A stretch of 14,009 nucleotides of DNA, from UHGV virus genome UHGV-0193479; one strand, given 5' to 3'. The notes beneath the pieces are model-generated. The model worked only from the letters and a program-made list of their open reading frames with translations, was not told the origin of the DNA and did not search any database. Shown here in pieces: positions 4,285-14,009 of the stretch. This DNA comes from a virus. Position 1 is the first letter of the stretch; each line of letters opens with the position of its first letter. A program made the translations under genes and the position numbers.

Positions 4285-4605
4285 ATGAAACTGGCGCGTG
4301 AGTTCGGTCGCCCGGACTGGCGTGCCATGCTTGCTGGCATGTCCTCTACGGAGTACGGCGACTGGAAAATCTTCTACCAGGACAATTACTTTCATGATGC
4401 GCAGCTGGACGCACATTTCTCCGGCTTGCTCTACACCATCTCAACCCTGTTTTTTGCCGATCCGGAGTTAACCCCGGACAGTTTCAGCATTCTTTCCTCT
4501 GCACCGGAAGCCATCGACATCGATGATCCGGATGACGATACGCTGATGGCGAAGGCTGCAGGTATTTCAGGAGGCGTGCGCTATGGCCCAGACGGCAGTC
4601 GGTGA
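4285..4605 (+). CDS. T: Tail assembly protein T-like; probably expressed mainly as a G-T fusion by -1 frameshift, approx. join(3854..4258,4258..4605)
   Basis: 106-aa ORF from first ATG, in the -1 frame relative to G and immediately downstream. Position between G and the tape measure gene matches the conserved G/GT arrangement of lambdoid phages. 3' end overlaps H start by 23 nt. Confidence 0.85.
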   Translation: MKLAREFGRPDWRAMLAGMSSTEYGDWKIFYQDNYFHDAQLDAHFSGLLYTISTLFFADPELTPDSFSILSSAPEAIDIDDPDDDTLMAKAAGISGGVRYGPDGSR

Positions 4606-7099
4606 TCTGGTCGTTAACCTTGACGTTAACTCGACAAAATTCAACGAGCAGCTCAGCTACGTCAAAAAAGAATTAAAACAGACCGGCAATACGGCAAACG
4701 ATGAAGCGTTACGTATCCAGCAGTCCTTCAGCCGCCAGGAGAACGCCGCGCGTAAGGCCGGTATTTCAGTGGGTCAGTATAACGCAGCGATGCGTATGCT
4801 CCCGGCGCAGTTTACTGACGTGGCCACGCAGCTGGCGGGTGGGCAGAACCCCTGGCTGATTCTGCTTCAGCAGGGCGGTCAGGTTAAGGACTCCTTTGGC
4901 GGGATCATTCCGACATTCCGGGCGTTGCTGGGGACGATTTCCCCGTTGATGGTCGGCATTGGTGCATTGTCCGTTGCAACGGGCGCGTTGTTCTATGCCT
5001 GGTACCAGGGCTCTTCCACTCTGTCTGATTTCAACAAAACGCTGGTACTGTCGGGGAACACAGCCGGACTGACAGCTGACCGCATGCTGGCACTGGCGCG
5101 GAACGGACAGGCAGCGGGGCTAACGTTCAACCAGACCAGTGAAGCCCTGACCGAGCTTATCAATGCAGGTGTGCGTACTGGCTCGCGCTTTGATGAAATG
5201 AGCCAGGCGGTGGCGCGGTTTACTGATGCCTCCGGCGTGCCGGTGGAGAAAGTCGCTGCAGCCTACGGCAAGCTCGCAACTGACCCGACATCGGGCCTGA
5301 TCGCGATGGCCCAGCAGTTCCATAACGTTACCGCAGAACAGATTGCCCATGTGGCGCAGCTGCAGCGTGCCGGTGATGAGGCTGGCGCACTGCAGGCGGC
5401 TAACGAGGCGGCTACAGCCGGATTCAACGATCAGACCAAAGCCATCCGCGACAATATGGGGACGATAGAGTCTTCAGCGGACTCCCTGAAGCGCGCCTTC
5501 AAGTCGATGTGGGATGCAGCCCTCGATATTGGCCGACCTGACACCGCGCAGGAGATGGTGGCAAAAGCCGAAGCCGCGTTCAAAAAAGCTGATGAAATCT
5601 GGAACCTGCGTAAAGGTGACCGATATGTCAATGCTGAGGCTCGCGCCCGATTCTGGAATGACCGCGAAACGGCCAGGCTTGCGCTGGATATGGCGCAGCA
5701 GCAGGCGGGAATTGCCAGGGCGAACGAAGAGAATGCATCGCGCGAAGCGGCTGCGGAATCGGATCGCCAGAAGTATGCTGCGCAGGCACAGGCAAACTAT
5801 GCCAAAACGCAGACGGCACTGGAGAAATACACGGCCAGGCAGAGCGAGCTCAACAAGGCGCTGAAAGAGGGGCGGATCCTCCAGGCTGACTACAACATCA
5901 ACCTGGCTGCCGCGAAAAAAGAGTACGAAGACACCCTTAAAAAGCCGAAGAAGACCCCGGCAATCAGAACCCCCGCAGGTGCCCGTGCCACCGATACGGC
6001 CAGTGCCCAGACGCTGGAGCTACAGACACAGCTGCGCACCCTGCAGGAGCATAAGAGCATCAATGACACCATCAGCCAGCAGCGTCAGGAGCTGTGGCGT
6101 CAGCAGTCCCGCTTTACGGTTCTGGAAGAGGCCGCGAAGACCCGAACGCTTTCTGCTGAGGAAAAATCCCTGCTGGCCAGTAAAAGTGAGGTGCTTTCCC
6201 GTGCGGAGCTGAATGCGAAGCTTGGCGATCAGATAGTGGCGCAGGAGCGGCTTAACCGCCTGCAGGATACGTCCCAAAAATACGTCACGCAGATCGGCGA
6301 GAAAACCCGAGCCCTTGCGGAAAGTGCTGGTATGAGCAGTCGTGCAGCACAACGCCGCAATGAGGAGGCCCAGCTTCTTCAGGGCTGGAAAAATGGTGGC
6401 GGTTCGGAGAACGACGCTGGTTATCAGAATGAGCTGCAGGCGCTGCAGGCGTATTACGCCGAGCAGGATAAGCTGCGGGACGACTGGCAATCCGGGGCCA
6501 AATCCGCATGGGCAGATTATGTTGATTCCGCTTCAGATGCTTATGGCCAGATGAAGTCGGTTGCCACCAGTACGTTTGATGGCATCGGGCAGAATATGGC
6601 AGACATGCTGACACGCGGAAAGGCTGACTGGGCTGACTTTACCCGCTCCACGCTCTCCATGCTGACACAAATTCTGCTGAAGCAGGCAATGACCGGACTG
6701 GTAGATTCAGCCTCCACGGCGCTGGGGTTTGCCAGCGGGGGATTCACCGGTTCGGGTGGGAAATATGAACCCGCAGGTGTCGTTCACCGTGGCGAATTTG
6801 TTTTCACCAAAGAGGCTACCAGTCGGATCGGCGTCGGCAATCTTTACCGGATGATGAAAGGCTATGCCACGGGAGGGTATGTCGGGGGCGGTGGTACAGG
6901 CCCGGCTGCAGCACCTTTCGGTGTCAGTGTATATGCCCCGGTGACGGTCGAGAATGCTTCCGGTAACGCACAGCAGCAAAACGACGGAGACAGGCTGGGT
7001 AAGGCGTATGAGCAGGTGATTAATAAATCTGTCAACGAGGGTATCGCCAGGGCAATCCAGCCCGGTGGGCTTATCTGGAATGCGACCAATCGCAGGTAA
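4583..7099 (+). CDS. H: Tail tape measure protein, lambda gpH-like
   Basis: 838 aa; VGDLVV…AGISVGQYNAAMRMLPAQFTDVATQLAGGQNPWLILLQQGGQVKDSFGG… and C-terminal GGFTGSGGKYEPAGVVHRGEFVFTKEATSRIGVGNLYRMMKGYATGGYVG match lambda H over essentially the full length (lambda H recalled as 853 aa). RBS AGGAGG at 4569..4574. Confidence 0.97.
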   Translation: MAQTAVGDLVVNLDVNSTKFNEQLSYVKKELKQTGNTANDEALRIQQSFSRQENAARKAGISVGQYNAAMRMLPAQFTDVATQLAGGQNPWLILLQQGGQVKDSFGGIIPTFRALLGTISPLMVGIGALSVATGALFYAWYQGSSTLSDFNKTLVLSGNTAGLTADRMLALARNGQAAGLTFNQTSEALTELINAGVRTGSRFDEMSQAVARFTDASGVPVEKVAAAYGKLATDPTSGLIAMAQQFHNVTAEQIAHVAQLQRAGDEAGALQAANEAATAGFNDQTKAIRDNMGTIESSADSLKRAFKSMWDAALDIGRPDTAQEMVAKAEAAFKKADEIWNLRKGDRYVNAEARARFWNDRETARLALDMAQQQAGIARANEENASREAAAESDRQKYAAQAQANYAKTQTALEKYTARQSELNKALKEGRILQADYNINLAAAKKEYEDTLKKPKKTPAIRTPAGARATDTASAQTLELQTQLRTLQEHKSINDTISQQRQELWRQQSRFTVLEEAAKTRTLSAEEKSLLASKSEVLSRAELNAKLGDQIVAQERLNRLQDTSQKYVTQIGEKTRALAESAGMSSRAAQRRNEEAQLLQGWKNGGGSENDAGYQNELQALQAYYAEQDKLRDDWQSGAKSAWADYVDSASDAYGQMKSVATSTFDGIGQNMADMLTRGKADWADFTRSTLSMLTQILLKQAMTGLVDSASTALGFASGGFTGSGGKYEPAGVVHRGEFVFTKEATSRIGVGNLYRMMKGYATGGYVGGGGTGPAAAPFGVSVYAPVTVENASGNAQQQNDGDRLGKAYEQVINKSVNEGIARAIQPGGLIWNATNRR

Positions 7100-7452: not shown

Positions 7453-8204
7453 GTCTTAATGCTGATTATCAAAAACTCGAGCCGGGCAATGAAGTCCGGC
7501 TTTTTTCTGTCGATGGCACGGCGTTCGGTATGTCAGATGTACTCCGCTTCCACGCACATAACATCGCGCATACCCCGGAAGAGATTGAGGCTGCAGGCGG
7601 GGATGAGAATAAACTTCCAGCGAAGTCCATCTGGTGGCAGGGTGAGGAGTATAAAGCCTGGCCGTGTCAGATTGAGGGGATCGAGGCTTCAACCTCGGGA
7701 AGTAGTGCCCAGCCAAAACTTTCGGTTGCTAACCTCGACAGTTCGATCACCGCGCTTTGCCTGGCTTACGACGATATGCTGCAGGCGAAGGTGACGATAC
7801 ATGACACCCTTGGTAAGTATCTCGATGCGAGAAACTTCACCGGAGGCAATCCGACAGCCGATCCGACCCAGGAGAAGCTGAAGGTTTTCTACATCGATGC
7901 AAAGAGCAGTGAAACCAATGAAGTTGTTGAGTTCACACTATCCAGCCCTATGGATCTGCAGGGGCTGATGATACCTACCCGCCAGCTTCATTCTCTGTGC
8001 ACATGGTGCATCCGGAACAAGTACCGAACCGGCGATGGCTGCGACTATGCCGGTACGCGCTATTTCGACAAAAACAACAACCCGGTAAGCGATCCGTCGC
8101 TGGATGAATGCAACGGCACGCTGACGGCCTGCAAACTCCGATTCGGCGAAGATAACGAACTCTCGTTTGGTGGCTTCCCGGGCACGTCTTTGATCAGGAG
8201 TTGA
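7449..8204 (+). CDS. L: Minor tail protein L, lambda gpL-like (C-terminal Cys cluster consistent with the [4Fe-4S] site)
   Basis: 251 aa; ATGA overlap with M stop. C-terminal cysteines CTWC…DGCDYAG…DECNGTLTACKLRF correspond to the lambda L motif …CTWTYRGDECGY…DKCSKCLSGCKFR (recalled). Confidence 0.93.
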   Translation: MSLNADYQKLEPGNEVRLFSVDGTAFGMSDVLRFHAHNIAHTPEEIEAAGGDENKLPAKSIWWQGEEYKAWPCQIEGIEASTSGSSAQPKLSVANLDSSITALCLAYDDMLQAKVTIHDTLGKYLDARNFTGGNPTADPTQEKLKVFYIDAKSSETNEVVEFTLSSPMDLQGLMIPTRQLHSLCTWCIRNKYRTGDGCDYAGTRYFDKNNNPVSDPSLDECNGTLTACKLRFGEDNELSFGGFPGTSLIRS

Positions 8205-8205
8205 T

Positions 8206-8916
8206 ATGCGTCAGAAAACCATCGATGCGATTATGGCGCATGCTGCAGCTGAATATCCTCATGAGTGTTGCGGCGTGGTGGCGCAGAAAAGCCGCGTTGA
8301 ACGTTATTTCCCGTGCCGGAATCTTGCCGAGGCGCCGGAGGACAATTTTGTCCTTTGCCCCGAAGACTACGCAGCTGCTGAGGACTGGGGAACGGTGATC
8401 GCCATCGTTCACAGTCACCCTGACGCCACAACGCAACCGAGCGAACTGGATAAAGCGCAATGCGACGCAACGCTTTTACCCTGGCATATTGTGAGCTGGC
8501 CGGAGGGGGATTTACGCACCATCCAGCCGCGCGGAGAACTGCCGCTGCTGGAGCGTCCGTTTGTGCTTGGACACTTCGACTGCTGGGGGCTGGTAATGAG
8601 CTATTTTCGGCAAACGCATGGTATCGAACTCCACGATTACCGGGTTGATTATCCCTGGTGGGAAAACGAATATCCGGACAACTTCTATCAGGATTGCTGG
8701 TATGAGTGCGGTTTCCGGGAATTCGACGGGCCACCGAAACCCGGCGATATGGTGATCATGCAGGTCCAGGCTGATAAGTGGAACCACGCGGGAATTCTGC
8801 TGGAGGGAAATATGCTGCTGCACCACCTGTACGGACATCTGAGCCAGCGCGTGCCGTATGGTGGCTACTGGCAGGAAAGGACGATGAAGATCGTCAGATA
8901 TAAAACGCTTCTATAG
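8206..8916 (+). CDS. K: Tail assembly protein K-like; N-terminal JAB/MPN (JAMM) metalloprotease motif plus C-terminal NlpC/P60-type Cys-His peptidase domain
   Basis: 236 aa; JAMM signature E…HSHPDATTQPSELD (E-x(n)-H-x-H-x7-S-x2-D) and downstream DCWGLV…H typical of NlpC/P60. Position between L and I as in lambda. RBS AGGAG at 8197..8201. Confidence 0.93.
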   Translation: MRQKTIDAIMAHAAAEYPHECCGVVAQKSRVERYFPCRNLAEAPEDNFVLCPEDYAAAEDWGTVIAIVHSHPDATTQPSELDKAQCDATLLPWHIVSWPEGDLRTIQPRGELPLLERPFVLGHFDCWGLVMSYFRQTHGIELHDYRVDYPWWENEYPDNFYQDCWYECGFREFDGPPKPGDMVIMQVQADKWNHAGILLEGNMLLHHLYGHLSQRVPYGGYWQERTMKIVRYKTLL

Positions 8917-8937
8917 CCCACTCAGGTGGGTTTTTTT
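8917..8937 (+). terminator. Rho-independent terminator after K
   Basis: Seen in sequence: CCCAC-TCAG-GTGGG followed by TTTTTTT (8931..8937), starting directly after the K stop codon (TAG 8914..8916). Confidence 0.7.
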
Positions 8938-9081
8938 AAACCCCGCATTTCACCGCGCACCGCACGCGCAATTCAAACCAAGAACCTTTCAGGATGCACC
9001 TTGAGGAACCGGCTGGCTGTCGGAGCCTTCTTGGGGCCGTTTTCCTGTGCGACAAGGTTCATCACTAAAAGGTAATCCGAT

Positions 9082-9591
9082 ATGCAATATCCAACCGTAT
9101 CTGTAAACGGCGTATCAGTTCGTGTCGATAACGAAGGACGTTATAATCTTAATGATCTCCACGCCGCAGCGGTGGCTGAAGGCAAAGCCACTGAATCACA
9201 GCGACCAGGTGAGTTTCTCAAAACCAAGCAAGTAAGGCGATTTGTTCAAGCCTTGAGCGATGCGAAGAAAATCGCATCGGTTATGACAATTAAGGGGGGA
9301 CCATTTCAGGGCTCCTGGGGGCTTGAACTTATCGCTATACGCTATGCAGCCTGGCTCAATCCGCTTTTTGAAATCAAAGTCTATGAGACATTTCAAATGC
9401 TAATGCGTCGCGGGTTCGATGCCATGTCTCGCTTGAATAAAATCGACCATGTGATTAACACCGAAACCAAAGCGATCAGCCAGTGCGCCAGCCAGATGGC
9501 CAAGTGGGGTGTTGGTGGCCGCAAGCGGCTTCTACACACAGCACGGGAGCGTGTAGCTGATGAAGTACAGATGTATCTCCCCGGTATTTAA
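9082..9591 (+). CDS. KilA-N domain protein (cargo/moron gene, function unknown)
   Basis: 169 aa. N-terminal region …VSVRVDNEGRYNLNDLHAAA…RPGEFLKTKQVRRFVQAL…GSWGLELIAIRYAAWLNPLFEIKV… fits the KilA-N pattern (I/V-R-x-D-x-x-G-x-x-NLNDLHKA…WL…K). Inserted between K and I, where lambda has no gene. Confidence 0.7.
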   Translation: MQYPTVSVNGVSVRVDNEGRYNLNDLHAAAVAEGKATESQRPGEFLKTKQVRRFVQALSDAKKIASVMTIKGGPFQGSWGLELIAIRYAAWLNPLFEIKVYETFQMLMRRGFDAMSRLNKIDHVINTETKAISQCASQMAKWGVGGRKRLLHTARERVADEVQMYLPGI

Positions 9592-9679
9592 AGGGCGCGT
9601 GAACCAAGATAACATTCGGTTTTGCTACCGCTCGATCCCTGCTACTCTTTTGGCAAAATTGACCAAAGGGGATAGGGAT

Positions 9680-10093
9680 ATGAAAAGAATTTTAGTTTTT
9701 ACCTCCATCTTAATGGTTGCCGGTTGTGCAACTAAGCCGGTGACAAATGAACAAGCACAGGATGTTCCTGCAAAACAGGTTATCAGCAATACACTGCTAG
9801 TAAAAAAAGAAGGGACTGGCAAGGTAATAATCAAACGAGACTCTGGTTTTATGGGCAGCGCCTGCATGACCCGAGTTTATGTTGATGGCAAGGAGGTCGC
9901 AGACTTAGATACAGCTCAAAAGGTAACGGTCTATCCCAAAATTGGAGATCATATCTTTAGCGCTTGGCCCAAAGGTATGTGTGGCGGAGGCATGAGCGAA
10001 CAGTCGGGTAAGGTGACAGATACTGGGGTTTTGATGTTTAGAGTTGGTTACGGAACCAACGGTGATTTTGGTATCTACCCTACAGCATTTTGA
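9680..10093 (+). CDS. Predicted lipoprotein (cargo/moron gene); signal peptide with lipobox VAG|C, Ala at +2
   Basis: 137 aa from ATG 9680: MKRILVFTSILMVAGCATKP… has n-region MKR, hydrophobic h-region and lipobox V-A-G-C. GGGGA RBS-like purine run upstream. The ORF-track start 9560 overlaps the KilA-N gene 3' end in another frame and precedes the signal peptide, so 9680 is preferred. Confidence 0.72.
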   Translation: MKRILVFTSILMVAGCATKPVTNEQAQDVPAKQVISNTLLVKKEGTGKVIIKRDSGFMGSACMTRVYVDGKEVADLDTAQKVTVYPKIGDHIFSAWPKGMCGGGMSEQSGKVTDTGVLMFRVGYGTNGDFGIYPTAF

Positions 10094-10112
10094 ATGCAGC
10101 AATTATATATAA

Positions 10113-10135
10113 CCTCGCTCAGGCGGGGTTTTTTA
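10113..10135 (+). terminator. Rho-independent terminator after lipoprotein gene
   Basis: Seen in sequence: CCTCGC-TCAG-GCGGGG (6-bp stem with one G-U wobble) followed by TTTTTTATT; 20 nt after the lipoprotein stop and 17 nt before the I start. Confidence 0.7.
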
Positions 10136-10151
10136 TTATTAAGAGGTTTAT

Positions 10152-10742
10152 ATGTCTGAAGCAATGACTCGAATTGAGCTCGGCGGCGAACCCGGTAAAA
10201 TATTTGGTAAAACTCATTGGCGACTTATCAGTAAAGTTTCTGAAGCAGGTGTAGCACTCGCAAAAACAATCACCGGGTTTGAAAGTTATATGGTAAACAG
10301 CAAGCGCCGCGGACTAACCTTTGCCATTTTTAAAGGAAAGAAAAACATAGGAGTTGATGACCTAGGTTTTCCGGTAACTGGTGAAGTGGTCAGGATTGTA
10401 CCGGTTATCATCGGAAGCAAAAAGGCTGGTTTACTTCAGACAATATTGGGTGCTGTTATTGTTGCAGTAGGTGCCATTGCTACATTTGGTTTTGCCCAGG
10501 CTTGGGGTGTAAATGTAATGATGGCTGGTGGAGCTATGATGGCGGGTGGCGTCGTCCAGATGTTATCTCCTCAGCCAACCGGATTAGCCAGCAAACAAAG
10601 TGCAGATAACCGTGCATCGTATGCGTTTGGCGGGGTAACCAACACTGCAGCGCAAGGCTACCCAGTGCCTCTGCTTTATGGTAAGCGTCGAATCGGCGGA
10701 GCGATTATTTCTGCCGGAATTTATGTCGAAGATCAACAGTAA
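10152..10742 (+). CDS. I: Tail assembly protein I-like (lambda gpI family)
   Basis: 196 aa; glycine/alanine-rich hydrophobic segment GAVIVAVGAIATFGFAQAWG…MMAGGAMMAGGVVQMLSPQP and C-terminal …PVPLLYGKRRIGG… parallel lambda I (…GAAAIAGSFFTAG…LGGVAQMLAPK…VLPVLYGEMRVGS…). Position between K and J. Clearly more divergent from lambda and more AT-rich than the flanking tail genes. Confidence 0.88.
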   Translation: MSEAMTRIELGGEPGKIFGKTHWRLISKVSEAGVALAKTITGFESYMVNSKRRGLTFAIFKGKKNIGVDDLGFPVTGEVVRIVPVIIGSKKAGLLQTILGAVIVAVGAIATFGFAQAWGVNVMMAGGAMMAGGVVQMLSPQPTGLASKQSADNRASYAFGGVTNTAAQGYPVPLLYGKRRIGGAIISAGIYVEDQQ

Positions 10743-10779
10743 ATTAATTAACTTATTAGCTGATAGGCAGGAGAAAACT

Positions 10780-11097
10780 ATGACTTTAGAAGAGCGCATG
10801 AGCATGCTTGAGGCAACCATCGCGAGCCTGCAGGTGGAGATAGCAGAGCTGCATAACCCGGCAATCGTCAATTCCGCCATTCAGAACGCACTACGGCCAG
10901 GTGGCGCTATTCATTCGACCATCACCGGTAATGGCTGGAGTTTGCGAGTAAAGGAGGGAAAGATTTCGCAGGGTGATGCAGGGGTTTTCGGTGGAACGGT
11001 AACAGCGGCCCAGAATGAGGCCGCTAAAACTCATGAAGAAATATTCAATGAAAAGCTCGATTTAATTATTTCTTTGATGCCACCTCTAAAACTTTAA
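10780..11097 (+). CDS. Hypothetical small protein (105 aa), predicted N-terminal coiled coil; cargo ORF between I and J
   Basis: ATG 10780 preceded by AGGAG (10769..10773). MTLEERMSMLEATIASLQVEIAELH… has heptad-like pattern. No similarity to a lambda protein recognised. The ORF-track start 10678 would overlap the I gene 3' end and is less likely. Confidence 0.5.
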   Translation: MTLEERMSMLEATIASLQVEIAELHNPAIVNSAIQNALRPGGAIHSTITGNGWSLRVKEGKISQGDAGVFGGTVTAAQNEAAKTHEEIFNEKLDLIISLMPPLKL

Positions 11098-11326
11098 GGA
11101 TGCGCGTGAACGCATCAATTGTGTGCGGATCATTACGTGCAGCTGATTCTGGGATTTTTGCTTGCCCTGCCTGATAGTTTTTAGTCAGAGCATCGAGTGC
11201 GCCTGGCCGGGCAATGTCCAGTAATTTCACAATGTCCGATAGAATCAGGCCAGTTGCAATTTCATGCGTAAGCAGCTTTTGTTTAAGCTCTGCCACTTCT
11301 TTTTCCAGTTCTAACATCGAACCCAT
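11066..11326 (-). CDS. Hypothetical small protein (86 aa), predicted N-terminal coiled coil; antisense to the late operon
   Basis: Minus-strand ORF MGSMLELEKEVAELKQKLLTHEIA… with a strong RBS on the minus strand (AAGGAG, 6-nt spacer, ATG at complement of 11324..11326). 3' end overlaps the convergent + ORF by 32 nt. Only convincing minus-strand gene in the window. Confidence 0.55.
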   Translation of the reverse strand: MGSMLELEKEVAELKQKLLTHEIATGLILSDIVKLLDIARPGALDALTKNYQAGQAKIPESAARNDPHTIDAFTRILKVLEVASKK

Positions 11327-11457: not shown

Positions 11458-11480
11458 AGCCACCTTTGGGTGGCTTTTTT
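11458..11480 (+). terminator. Rho-independent terminator immediately upstream of J
   Basis: Seen in sequence: AGCCACC-TTTG-GGTGGCT followed by TTTTTT (7-bp perfect stem); ends 11 nt before the J start codon. Orientation-specific: on the minus strand the A-run precedes the hairpin. Confidence 0.6.
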
Positions 11481-11491
11481 ATGGGCGCAAT

Positions 11492-14009
11492 ATGGCTACA
11501 GATAAAGTGTTAAAAGGCCGCAAGGGCGGCAGCTCAAGTTCCCGAACCCCTACCGAACAGCCTGATGATCTGCAATCTGTAGCGAAGGCAAAAATCCTCG
11601 TTGCGCTTGGGGAAGGGGAGTTTGCTGGACAGCTCACCGGCAAAGATATCTACCTGGACGGAACAGCGCTGGAGAATGCTGACGGCTCCCAAAACTTCAG
11701 CGGGGTAACGTGGGAGTTTCGCGCGGGAACGCAGGCGCAAAAATATATTCAGGGTATTCCCGGTACCGAAAACGAGATCAGCGTAGGAACTGAGGTATCA
11801 AGTGCCACAGCCTGGACGCGCACGTTTACCAATACGCAGCTTTCAGCAGTTCGCCTGCGTCTTAAATGGCCCTCGCTTTTCAAACAGGAAGACGACGGCG
11901 ATCTGGTGGGTTACTCGGTCAATTATGCGATTGACCTGCAGACTGACGGCGGCACATGGCAGACGGTACTCAATACCAGCGTGACCGGCAAAACGACGTC
12001 TGGTTATGAGCGCAGCCACCGTATCGATTTACCGCAGGCTGGCAGCACATGGACAATACGTCTGCGTAAGATTACCTCTGACGCCAACAGCGCGAAGATC
12101 GGCGACACGATGATGCTGCAGAGCTTCACCGAGGTGATTGACGCCAAACTGCGCTACCCGAACACCGCGCTGCTCTACGTCGAATTCGACTCAAGCCAGT
12201 TCAACGGCTCTATTCCTCAAATTTCATGCGAACCGCGCGGCCGCGTTATCCGCGTTCCAGATACCTACGACCCTGAAACCCGCACTTATAGCGGTACATG
12301 GACCGGTGCGTTTAAGTGGGCATGGACGGATAACCCTGCGTGGATTTTTTACGACCTGGTTGTTTCTGACCGGTTCGGCCTTGGGCACCGTTTGACCGCT
12401 GCGAATATTGATAAATGGACGCTTTATCAGGTTGCTCAGTATTGTGATCAGATGGTACCAGACGGCAAAGGGGGCAACGGTACAGAACCACGCTATACCT
12501 GCAACGTGTACATTCAGGACCGGAACGACGCCTACACAGTCCTGCGTGATTTTGCCGCTATCTTCCGTGGCATGACCTACTGGGGCGGGGATCAGATTGT
12601 GGCCCTGGCTGACATGCCGCGCGATGTTGATTACAGCTATACGCGCGCTAACGTTGTTGGCGGTCGCTTCACCTATTCGAGCAGCACCACGAAAAGCCGC
12701 TACACCACAGCGCTGGTTTCATGGTCAGACCCGGGTAACGCTTATGCCGACGCGATGGAGCCGGTATTTGAGCAGGCGCTGGTGGCGCGGTACGGCTTCA
12801 ATCAGCTGGAAATGACAGCCATCGGCTGCACCAGGCAGTCAGAGGCGAACCGAAAGGGGCGCTGGGGTATTCTCACCAATAACAAGGATCGCGTTGTTTC
12901 GTTTGATGTCGGGCTGGACGGAAACATTCCGCAGCCGGGCTACATCATCGCCGTGGCAGACGAGCTGCTTTCCGGAAAGGTTATGGGCGGCCGCATCAGC
13001 GCCGTTAACGGTCGCGTTATCAAACTTGACCGCGTAGCTGATGCAGCACCAGGTGATCGCCTTATTCTCAACCTGCCTTCCGGAGCGTCGCAGAGCAGGA
13101 CCATTCAGGCCGTGAACGGGGAATCAGTCACAGTCACCACGGCATACAGTGAGACGCCACAGGCCGAAGCTGTTTGGGTGGTTGAATCTGACGAGCTTTA
13201 CGCGCAGCAGTATCGTGTTGTCAGCGTTTCCGATAACAATGATGGCACTTTCTCGATTACCGGCGCTTTGCACGATCCGGATAAATATGCGCGTATCGAT
13301 ACCGGTGCCATTATCGACCAGCGGCCAATAAGTGTAATTCCGCCCGGTAATCAGTCCCCGCCAGCTAATATCGCGATCAGTTCGTTTTCTGTCGTTCAGC
13401 AGAATATCAGCGTTGAGACCATGCGCGTCAGCTGGGACCAGGCGAAAAATGCTATCGCGTATGAGGCACAGTGGCGTCGCAATGACGGGAACTGGGTGAA
13501 TGTGCCGCGCAGCTCCACCACGTCATTCGATGTTCCGGGGATTTATGCAGGACGCTACCTGGTTCGCGTGCGTGCCATCAATGCCGCCGAAATTTCATCT
13601 GGGTGGGGCTATTCAGAAGAGAAAACGTTGACGGGTAAAGTGGGAAACCCACCGAAGCCGGTTGGCTTCATCGCTTCTGAAAACGTGGTATTCGGTATCG
13701 AGCTGAACTGGGGATTCCCGGCGAATACCGAAGACACGCTGAAGACGGAAATTCAGTACAGCCTGACCGGTAGCGAAGATGATGCAATGCTGCTGGCCGA
13801 TGTGCCTTATCCGCAGCGCAAATATCAGCAGATGGGTCTTAAGGCAGGGCAGATTTTCTGGTATCGCGCGCAACTGGTCGACAGAACGGGAAACGAGTCC
13901 GGGTATACCGACTGGGTGCGAGGTCAGGCCAGCATCGATGTTTCCGATATCACCGATGTGATCCTGGAGGAGATCAAAGACTCCGCTACGTTTAAAGATC
14001 TGATTGAGA
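11492..14009 (+). CDS. J: Central tail fibre / host specificity protein, lambda gpJ-like (3'-truncated by window edge)
   Basis: Open frame from ATG 11492 to the window end with no stop (checked at start, middle and end), about 839 codons. …VAKAKILVALGEGEFAG…, …LRYPNTALLYVEFDSSQFNG…, …RTYSGTWTGAFKWAWTDNPAWIFYDLV…, …YQVAQYCDQMVPDGKGGNGTEPRYTCNVYIQ… are collinear with lambda J (…CYPNTALVGVQVDSEQFG…, …RQYSGIWDGTFKPAYSNNMAWCLWDML…, …GQYCDQSVPDGFGGTEPRITCNAYL…). Absent from the ORF track only because it has no stop in the window. Confidence 0.95.
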   Translation, partial: MATDKVLKGRKGGSSSSRTPTEQPDDLQSVAKAKILVALGEGEFAGQLTGKDIYLDGTALENADGSQNFSGVTWEFRAGTQAQKYIQGIPGTENEISVGTEVSSATAWTRTFTNTQLSAVRLRLKWPSLFKQEDDGDLVGYSVNYAIDLQTDGGTWQTVLNTSVTGKTTSGYERSHRIDLPQAGSTWTIRLRKITSDANSAKIGDTMMLQSFTEVIDAKLRYPNTALLYVEFDSSQFNGSIPQISCEPRGRVIRVPDTYDPETRTYSGTWTGAFKWAWTDNPAWIFYDLVVSDRFGLGHRLTAANIDKWTLYQVAQYCDQMVPDGKGGNGTEPRYTCNVYIQDRNDAYTVLRDFAAIFRGMTYWGGDQIVALADMPRDVDYSYTRANVVGGRFTYSSSTTKSRYTTALVSWSDPGNAYADAMEPVFEQALVARYGFNQLEMTAIGCTRQSEANRKGRWGILTNNKDRVVSFDVGLDGNIPQPGYIIAVADELLSGKVMGGRISAVNGRVIKLDRVADAAPGDRLILNLPSGASQSRTIQAVNGESVTVTTAYSETPQAEAVWVVESDELYAQQYRVVSVSDNNDGTFSITGALHDPDKYARIDTGAIIDQRPISVIPPGNQSPPANIAISSFSVVQQNISVETMRVSWDQAKNAIAYEAQWRRNDGNWVNVPRSSTTSFDVPGIYAGRYLVRVRAINAAEISSGWGYSEEKTLTGKVGNPPKPVGFIASENVVFGIELNWGFPANTEDTLKTEIQYSLTGSEDDAMLLADVPYPQRKYQQMGLKAGQIFWYRAQLVDRTGNESGYTDWVRGQASIDVSDITDVILEEIKDSATFKDLIE

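Follow-up and report, generated by a model that had tools for sequence, protein, structure and literature searches.

The window analysed here is the whole 14,009-nucleotide (nt) stretch of the viral genome UHGV-0193479. It covers the head-tail part of a lambda-like prophage, with genes E, FI, FII, Z, U, V, G/T, H (4583–7099), M, L, K, I and J. Between the tail genes K and I, the segment 8917–10135 carries two + strand genes, encoding a KilA-N domain protein and a lipoprotein, and two intrinsic terminators. We propose that this segment probably consists of two accessory modules, each mobile on its own, that have come to lie side by side in the K–I moron hot spot of a late operon of the lambda/HK97 type, one being an antirepressor-type unit silenced by its RNA leader and the other a lipoprotein module. 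The leader occupies 133 nt (8952–9084, + strand) in front of the KilA-N gene, and comparative analysis showed it to be a covarying RNA whose predicted fold sequesters the Shine-Dalgarno sequence of that gene. The original prediction had described a single two-gene cargo cassette; its inventory of two terminators and two genes between K and I was accurate to within a few bases.

The leader matched its covariance model with 131.5 bits (E = 6e-31). The fold comprised two pseudoknots and a three-way junction, and was closed by a helix containing the Shine-Dalgarno sequence. Starting from the 5' side, the small helix P0 (8955–8958 with 8966–8969) encloses a loop whose positions 8961–8964 pair with 9048–9051, a TGNG motif lying between P2 and P1c; this constitutes the first pseudoknot, PK-A. 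The second, PK-B, is formed by the linker preceding P1 and the P4 loop (8978–8983 with 9029–9034). The long helix P1 is divided into P1a (8985–8989, CCUUU, with 9068–9072, AAAGG), P1b (8993–8996 with 9060–9063) and P1c (8998–9003 with 9053–9058), followed by P2 (9004–9008 with 9042–9046), P3 (9009–9012 with 9020–9023) and P4 (9025–9027 with 9035–9037), all read on the + strand. The Shine-Dalgarno AAGG (9069–9072), 10 nt before the ATG at 9082, lies in P1a, the outermost part of P1. The original prediction had taken the layout of the segment as one expressible from the prophage, while calling autonomous expression unproven. The 144 nt upstream of the KilA-N gene instead corresponded to this conserved leader hiding the ribosome-binding site (RBS), which points to tight silencing rather than to autonomous prophage expression.

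Two alignments supported the fold. The first (A4) contained 38 diverse leaders aligned with plain MAFFT, not fitted to the structure, and was evaluated with a 42-pair model. Paired cells represented 86.2%, versus 34–51% when the partners were slid by 1–3 columns, and two-sided (compensatory) changes were present in 27 pairs versus 13–17 in the slid controls. The second (A5) was gathered with a covariance model made of the nested helices only, the pseudoknots being left out, and yielded 105 copies from 100 sources (86 distinct rows). Here, 90.2% of the cells were paired (28–49% in the slid controls) and 33 of the 41 pairs showed compensatory change. Both pseudoknots emerged although absent from the model: PK-A was 95.6% paired, with one pair split into GC 45, AU 22 and UA 7, and PK-B was 88.9% paired, with covariation at 6 of its 6 pairs, one of them split into AU 31, CG 29 and UA 16. 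The Shine-Dalgarno helix P1a was paired at 98.8% across the copies. The many G-U pairs indicated folding of the sense strand. Near-identical copies of the leader were too alike to be informative, and the divergent ones, found before KilA-N homologues, differed at most positions yet kept the pairing. An alternative pairing of CCGG (9009–9012) with a distal CCGT/CCGG, and not with the proximal TCGG, could form in many of the sequences and was rejected as less well supported, with 72% compared with 86% for P3 and 80% for P4. Switching between the proximal and distal pairings may occur.

The leader was not confined to the KilA-N gene. A BLAST search with positions 8933–9090 against phage genomes returned 307 records, and each match ended at the start codon of a gene. 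The leader was found before the Ant gene located between R and Rz in Shiga-toxin phages (VT2-Sakai, PA2, and d_ant of Phi24B), before Rha genes after Rz, before KilA-N genes after Rz in P22-like Salmonella phages (sb54 of ST64B, orf45 of ST104), before KilA-N+P63C genes amid the tail genes of Klebsiella phages, and before an HNH_3 gene in phage Dewey. The proteins encoded downstream of 153 leader copies clustered into seven unrelated families (KilA-N, KilA-N+P63C, Rha+ORF11CD3, P22_AR_N+ORF11CD3, HNH_3, Rha and ANT/KilAC); the sharing of one leader by seven families makes it improbable that each product regulates its own gene. As judged from these sequence matches, the leader is common to the antirepressor/Bro/KilA/Rha class of genes. 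Among 5426 complete E. coli genomes, 879 contained it, at 2968 places in all, with a median of 3 and a maximum of 10 per genome, mostly in O157:H7. It also occurred in Salmonella, Klebsiella, Citrobacter, Serratia, Erwinia, Tatumella, Arsenophonus and other Enterobacterales, and several phages carried two or three copies.

The prophage contains a second, reduced copy of the terminator and leader, located 6.7 kb ahead of the first base of the window (4340–5108 of locus L004, with the leader at 4373–4490, 59 bits). It lies between the lysis genes and terS and precedes an open reading frame (ORF) of 206 amino acids (aa) with a Phage_Tail_Tip domain. The C-terminal motif of this ORF, NALKPGGAI, was also seen in the window ORF 10780–11097.

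The leader matched no family of Rfam 15, where isrK, C4 and the known riboswitches and ribozymes are included. A search of the entire window at E ≤ 1 was empty, and one of positions 8890–9110 at E ≤ 10 gave only noise. The best relevant hit was isrK, with 13.6 bits versus a threshold of 50, and it covered the terminator hairpin only. The Gifsy-1 isrK/orf45 region was rejected as a homologue, having an analogous layout and no sequence similarity. No description of the leader was found in the searchable literature, where most subscription journals are absent, and it was not mentioned in Tree 2014 or in the papers on Pas-sRNA, 24B_1 and IsrK. On the basis of sequence comparison, the leader constitutes a new RNA family within a known general type, the cis-acting leader that sequesters a Shine-Dalgarno sequence, and stands out by an unusually elaborate fold and by a broad distribution of medical relevance.

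The terminator t1 immediately after K (8915–8939, + strand, stem 8915–8932) had a 7-base-pair (bp) G+C-rich stem, a 4-nt loop and a run of seven T, with a folding energy of −10.3 kcal/mol (z −2.8). The original prediction had treated it as a plain boundary of the cassette. A terminator-like hairpin followed by a T-run was present at most 70 nt upstream of the leader in 76 of the 93 distinct leader copies. Thus t1 is the 5' component of the KilA-N module, where it is read as a putative insulator, and not the end of the K transcription unit. Among the loci encoding relatives of the window KilA-N protein, the leader ended at the ATG in 79 of 80. Together with the frequency of the upstream terminator, this indicates a mobile unit composed of terminator, leader and gene. 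The first eight codons or so (M-x-Y-P-T-V/I..., 9082–9111) were common to the leader-following KilA-N and Rha genes, and the BLAST matches extended about 30 nt into the coding region, so that the mobile unit or the RNA element may continue past the ATG. The second terminator, t2 (10111–10136, + strand, stem 10111–10130), had an 8-bp stem and six T (−12.3 kcal/mol, z −4.5), and 0 of 200 shuffles were as stable. Alignment showed that t2 forms the 3' end of the lipoprotein module and is also present in phages with the lipoprotein alone. The terminator scan as a whole was not enriched (18 found versus 14 ± 3.7 expected from shuffles), and t1, t2 and a third site at 11458–11475 were among its best-scoring sites, each falling exactly in an intergenic gap.

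The independence of the two modules was visible in the context of the lipoprotein gene, examined in 77 viral-contig loci encoding relatives with 58–100% identity. In about 47 of them the order was L-K-lipoprotein-I(-J), the lipoprotein gene starting 33 nt past the K stop codon with no terminator between. The order of the window, K-terminator-leader-KilA-N-lipoprotein-I, was found in 5 loci only. A 100% identical lipoprotein was accompanied by the KilA-N unit in loci L259, L260 and L262 and devoid of it in L261 and L263. The isolated phages mEp390 and CharmingMan possess a distant lipoprotein homologue (32% identity) at the same place with the same downstream terminator, and share with the window a lipoprotein leader of about 40 nt (ACCAAAGGGGATAGGGATATG). 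Alignment of the window to CharmingMan, mEp390, L261 and L263 revealed at 9634–9650 a degenerate leftover of the 3' end of K (GATCCCTGCTACT), so that homology to the K end and to the lipoprotein leader starts again at approximately position 9634. Compared with the loci lacking the KilA-N unit, the last few codons of K in the window (approximately 8906–8916) were unlike those of the K alleles directly abutting the lipoprotein gene. Because K-end homology resumes at about 9634, before the resident lipoprotein-terminator module, the KilA-N unit is a secondary insertion of approximately 730 bp (~8906–9633). The two modules are, from these sequence contexts, independent and separable, and neither the single cassette of the original prediction nor an obligate pairing of KilA-N and lipoprotein agrees with the counts.

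The 88-nt spacer (9592–9679, + strand) thus contains the right junction of the insertion, at approximately 9633/9634. It folded with −32.8 kcal/mol (z −3.7 for 9592–9680), and its second part, 9634–9679 on the + strand, is the leader and RBS of the lipoprotein gene. It includes the K remnant as well as a hairpin in which the Shine-Dalgarno sequence of the lipoprotein gene is paired. In relatives, the 5' arm of this hairpin is made of the last codons of K, and the hairpin is kept in the window though K ends elsewhere. This location of the arm suggests translational coupling of the lipoprotein to K. At the K–lipoprotein junction, loci L266 (1599–4000) and L283 (1662–3943) carry a 2.4-kb unit resembling P22 immI instead of the KilA-N unit. 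Its genes encode two Arc-like repressors, the first of them divergent, together with a Bro-N/P22_AR_C antirepressor and the product of a further ORF of approximately 250–270 aa.

The place of insertion was a known one. The original prediction viewed the cargo as a departure from the lambda order, in which K is followed directly by I. The K–I gap is, however, the canonical moron site of HK97 and HK022, where it holds gp20, a "moron gene product" in the GenBank annotation, and the cargo is therefore a textbook case and no oddity. The K–I gap measured 1235 bp in the window versus about 320 bp in HK97, HK022 and mEp234, and G+C was 41–47% over 9550–10450, in a trough delimited at 9550–10750, versus 52–58% in K and J; this extra DNA of lower G+C agrees with the accessory nature originally assigned to it. 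Both genes were missing from HK97, HK022 and mEp234, so they are not universal tail components. The cassette itself is ordinary, as further cargo in the best-known moron site of lambdoid phages. Gene I (10152–10742, + strand, phrog_32, E = 3e-68) is an allele of 196 aa, 73% identical to that of CharmingMan, which co-occurred with the lipoprotein gene across the loci of the context table. Since the trough spans the lipoprotein gene and gene I, which co-occur, the mosaic block exceeds the cassette first outlined.

The KilA-N protein (169 aa, 9082–9591, + strand) matched Pfam PF04383 over residues 9–109 with 56.6 bits versus a cut-off of 23.8 (E = 2.6e-15), and phrog_129, "transcriptional regulator", with E = 8.5e-55. 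Its C-terminal part of about 60 aa had no family match, and no relatives were found among solved structures. To the eye this part resembled the ORF11CD3 domain present in the Rha and Ant versions, a likeness supported neither by BLASTP nor by Pfam. The leader of this gene is shared with P22_AR_N, ANT/KilAC and Rha genes, and the same site is occupied by the immI-type antirepressor unit in L266 and L283. By analogy with these genes, and from family and position only, the protein is a candidate antirepressor-type regulator. The leader-KilA-N units of loci L336–L415 were mostly seen within tail clusters, after chaperones (DUF6246, Phage_TAC_1), major tail proteins or K, or else after Rz.

The lipoprotein precursor (137 aa, 9680–10093, + strand, phrog_890, E = 2e-51) has a signal peptide with the lipobox ...LMVAGC. 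Its N-terminus, MKRILVFTSILMVAGC, fits the pattern [LVI][ASTVI][GAS]C, and Cys16 was invariant in 33 homologues; two further Cys were conserved in alignment A3. The Ala at position +2 predicts, by the established Lol rule, sorting to the outer membrane. The 108 homologues came from Enterobacterales and Vibrio, were all unnamed or called "lipoprotein", and had no Pfam domain. An AlphaFold2 (AF2) model gave an eight-stranded beta-sandwich (predicted local distance difference test, pLDDT, 88.6), for which structure searches returned generic beta-sandwich matches only. Relatives of the gene were also located elsewhere: behind I, ahead of L and, with 73% identity, behind gene D in P2-like phages. 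Pfam, NCBIfam and PHROG gave "lipoprotein" only and no match to the Cor or Llp families, and a separate cor gene is annotated downstream of J in the same prophage. A role in exclusion or in the masking of a receptor, by analogy with Cor and Llp, would be a guess.

We propose the following scheme. Module B (~9634–10136), with the lipoprotein gene, its own RBS hairpin and the downstream terminator, would be the older resident; it stands directly after K in most relatives. Module A (~8906–9633), made of an intrinsic terminator, the 133-nt double-pseudoknotted leader and the KilA-N gene, would have been inserted secondarily. Because no promoter was found and the module always lies inside late operons, both modules are likely transcribed with the late operon when Q-modified polymerase passes t1 and t2. 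In the lysogen, t1 would stop stray transcription. On transcripts bearing the leader, the fold would block KilA-N translation until a cue (a ligand, a protein, an RNA or processing) opens P1. The opening might be brought about by a factor that the host or the phage supplies, by a small molecule, by processing of the RNA or by an internal promoter, the last being suggested by variants with TATAAT in the linker. KilA-N might then, to judge by its family and position only, bind DNA or work as a regulator of the antirepressor kind, and the lipoprotein might act in the envelope.

It is possible, and we hold this tentatively, that the leader represents a new class of sensory RNA, riboswitch-like and perhaps self-processing, which gates the translation of genes of the antirepressor type (KilA-N, Rha, Ant, KilAC) that temperate phages of enterobacteria carry in their late operons. 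The compact double pseudoknot, its modular use before seven families, the 2–10 copies per genome and the lack of an autoregulatory logic are compatible with this. A constitutive silencer, or a site bound by a protein or a small RNA (sRNA), fits the evidence too, and the evidence does not discriminate between these and a sensory RNA.

Several observations weigh against the two-module interpretation or its parts. Folded singly, the window leader gave nested helices and was not unusually stable (z −1.55 versus shuffles), so the case for the structure rests on covariation and comparison. The values observed on A4 were reached by 0 of 500 shuffles, a control that overstates the significance as the leader sequences share kinship; the slid-partner controls are fairer. 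In some divergent variants (L339, L346, L365), the linker that joins P0 to P1 contains a perfect TATAAT hexamer. From its sequence, this could possibly be an internal promoter giving a truncated, translatable mRNA without the 5' arm of the inhibitory fold. KilA-N defines a domain family only, the C-terminus is matchless, and the window contains no gene for a target repressor. Transcription with the late operon and read-through of the terminators are deduced from position alone. Finally, in at least 30 of the 80 KilA-N loci an ORF with a lipobox follows within 300 nt, and the N-termini of these ORFs fall into at least six unrelated types; a functional link is perhaps underrated.

The classic autonomous moron, in which a promoter within 8938–9081 would express both genes in the repressed prophage as a single operon for lysogenic conversion or defence, with a terminator at either end, appears unlikely. 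The original prediction had recognised this architecture, and the part of it that stood comprised the extra DNA, its deviant composition and the terminator 3' of the lipoprotein gene. The canonical moron site also speaks in its favour, as does the absence of a convincing terminator between the two genes: the spacer hairpins have no T-run, so that KilA-N has no downstream terminator of its own and the lipoprotein gene has t2. The linker TATAAT of a few variants may be added. The promoter itself was sought and not found: a consensus scan, whose reach is limited to sigma-70 sites, detected none over 8917–10151, in agreement with the original reading of 8938–9081 by eye, and no LexA box or operator was found in the cassette. 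The supposed promoter region is an RNA structure, and its P0 helix and loop must be transcribed because they covary with downstream bases. In addition, the KilA-N Shine-Dalgarno sequence is sequestered and the two genes are separable in nature.

A reading of KilA-N and the lipoprotein as the two components of one functional unit, for example a regulator with an envelope effector for exclusion or defence, in which the lipoprotein partner could be swapped, seems doubtful too. The frequent lipobox ORFs behind KilA-N would be accounted for, as would loci L321 and L325, where both genes are adjacent in reversed order. Nevertheless most loci have the lipoprotein without KilA-N, identical copies included. 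Two other lipoprotein families were mostly alone, with a leader-type gene upstream in 20 of 57 and 16 of 80 loci only, and this upstream position was occupied by four gene types (KilA-N, Rha, HNH_3 and KilA-N+P63C). The PADLOC defence models gave no meaningful match, the only hit being that of KilA-N to PDC-S22 with 15 bits. Lipoprotein genes are common among morons generally, so their adjacency to KilA-N in a shared hot spot is expected. The two-module interpretation accordingly sees KilA-N and the lipoproteins that follow it as two kinds of module sharing hot spots, any functional link being improbable.

It is very improbable that 8952–9081 is conserved for a reason other than RNA structure, either as a DNA recombination or operator site (the GCGC-N7-GCGC of P0 is also a DNA palindrome, and the leader acts as a recombination joint between different genes) or for a leader peptide of 24–25 codons coupled like orf45 of Gifsy-1 (the window has a 24-codon ORF from the ATG at 8993 to a TAA at 9065 that overlaps the Shine-Dalgarno sequence, with similar lengths in many copies), since only RNA pairing explains the long-range compensatory changes and the G-U pairs, no ATG exists there in 26 of the 93 distinct copies, lengths and stops vary in the rest, single-base indels are common, and the isrK-orf45 region of Gifsy-1 is dissimilar.

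Gene K (8206–8916, + strand) encodes a tail tip protein with JAB (PF14464) and NlpC/P60 (PF00877) domains identified by Pfam, and was aligned with its counterparts in HK97, HK022, mEp390 and CharmingMan. The DNA of K and J was 91–96% identical to HK97, HK022 and the mEp phages. The segment was 100% identical in a prophage of NZ_LR536431.1 adjoining yecD/aspS, the only one of the 5426 complete E. coli genomes to have the whole cassette. In the I–J gap of the window, a forward ORF (10780–11097, phrog_22477) overlaps a reverse ORF (11066–11326, phrog_23209), and the terminator 11458–11475 stands just before J, which starts at 11494. This layout is that of gp22 ("moron") and the reverse-oriented gp23 ("reverse moron") of the GenBank records of HK97 and HK022, and BLASTP showed no similarity of the two ORFs to gp22 and gp23 of HK97. 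The best terminator-like hairpin of the whole scan, with 9 pairs followed by a T-run, was at 7479–7502, at the M/L junction and the start of gene L. It may be a chance occurrence or an internal attenuator.

The leader outweighs the cassette in significance, as a covarying pseudoknotted RNA present in about one-sixth of the complete E. coli genomes, with as many as 10 copies in O157:H7 strains, and always standing directly before genes of the antirepressor type. The silencing and release of antirepressor-type genes located in late operons bears on prophage induction, on Shiga-toxin release and on the cross-talk of co-resident prophages. If the leader were a sensory RNA, then Stx, P22-like and lambda/HK97-like phages would gain an unrecognised input into induction, cross-talk or superinfection decisions. 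A defined element of 133 nt with predicted helices makes the question of antirepressor silencing experimentally tractable. For annotation, a terminator directly 5' of such a gene belongs to the control module of this gene, and not to the end of the preceding operon.

The closest known counterparts of the segment are the morons of HK97 and HK022, which were reportedly described in both the K–I and I–J gaps (gp20, gp22 and gp23) by Juhala and co-workers in 2000. The definition attributed to these authors is that of extra DNA separating two genes that adjoin each other in related phages, with a promoter of its own, a factor-independent terminator behind the gene and a composition unlike that of its neighbours. 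The insertion points and the tail operon are the same, and in both cases extra DNA of deviant composition ends in a factor-independent terminator. The genes are, however, unrelated and the K–I content differs. No promoter was found in the segment, where two modules lie side by side and one of them begins with a terminator and an RNA leader. Cor (phi80, N15, HK022) and Llp (T5) are lipoproteins responsible for phage exclusion. Like them, the window lipoprotein is small and encoded among or near the tail and host-range genes of a temperate siphophage, whereas it has no match to their families and the same prophage has its own cor gene.

As for the leader, translational riboswitches and pseudoknotted leaders similarly have a multi-helix fold with tertiary pairings by the helix closing on the Shine-Dalgarno sequence, and do not depend on a protein family. 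The window leader differs from riboswitches by the lack of an Rfam match and by its downstream genes, which are phage regulators giving no metabolic pathway or clue. In the immI region of P22 (mnt-arc-ant, with the antisense RNA sar), an antirepressor gene is embedded in the late operon and needs silencing on late transcripts. The window resembles it in having an antirepressor-type gene in a late operon, and the immI-like unit of L266 and L283 is at the very same junction. In contrast to P22, the window has neither Mnt/Arc nor an antisense RNA, KilA-N is not P22 Ant, and the silencing is proposed to occur through a folded leader acting in cis.

The Gifsy prophages contain LexA-controlled antirepressor units preceded by terminators (PMC3121763). 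In the IsrK-orf45-anrP region of Gifsy-1, located in the prophage late region, a terminator is followed by a structured leader that holds an antirepressor-like gene translationally inactive, and by the gene (PMC4825925). The terminator-leader-gene layout of the window is like that of Gifsy-1. The two differ in that they resemble each other neither in sequence nor by Rfam, t1 directly adjoins the stop codon of K and leaves no upstream sRNA gene, and the small ORF of the leader is not conserved. The leader of the window is a double pseudoknot, whereas Gifsy-1 uses alternative hairpins switched by an sRNA acting in trans. Taken together, the immI-like unit at the same junction and the terminators 5' of the Gifsy antirepressor units fit an antirepressor-type module that would be controlled by RNA, in place of Mnt/Arc/sar or LexA.

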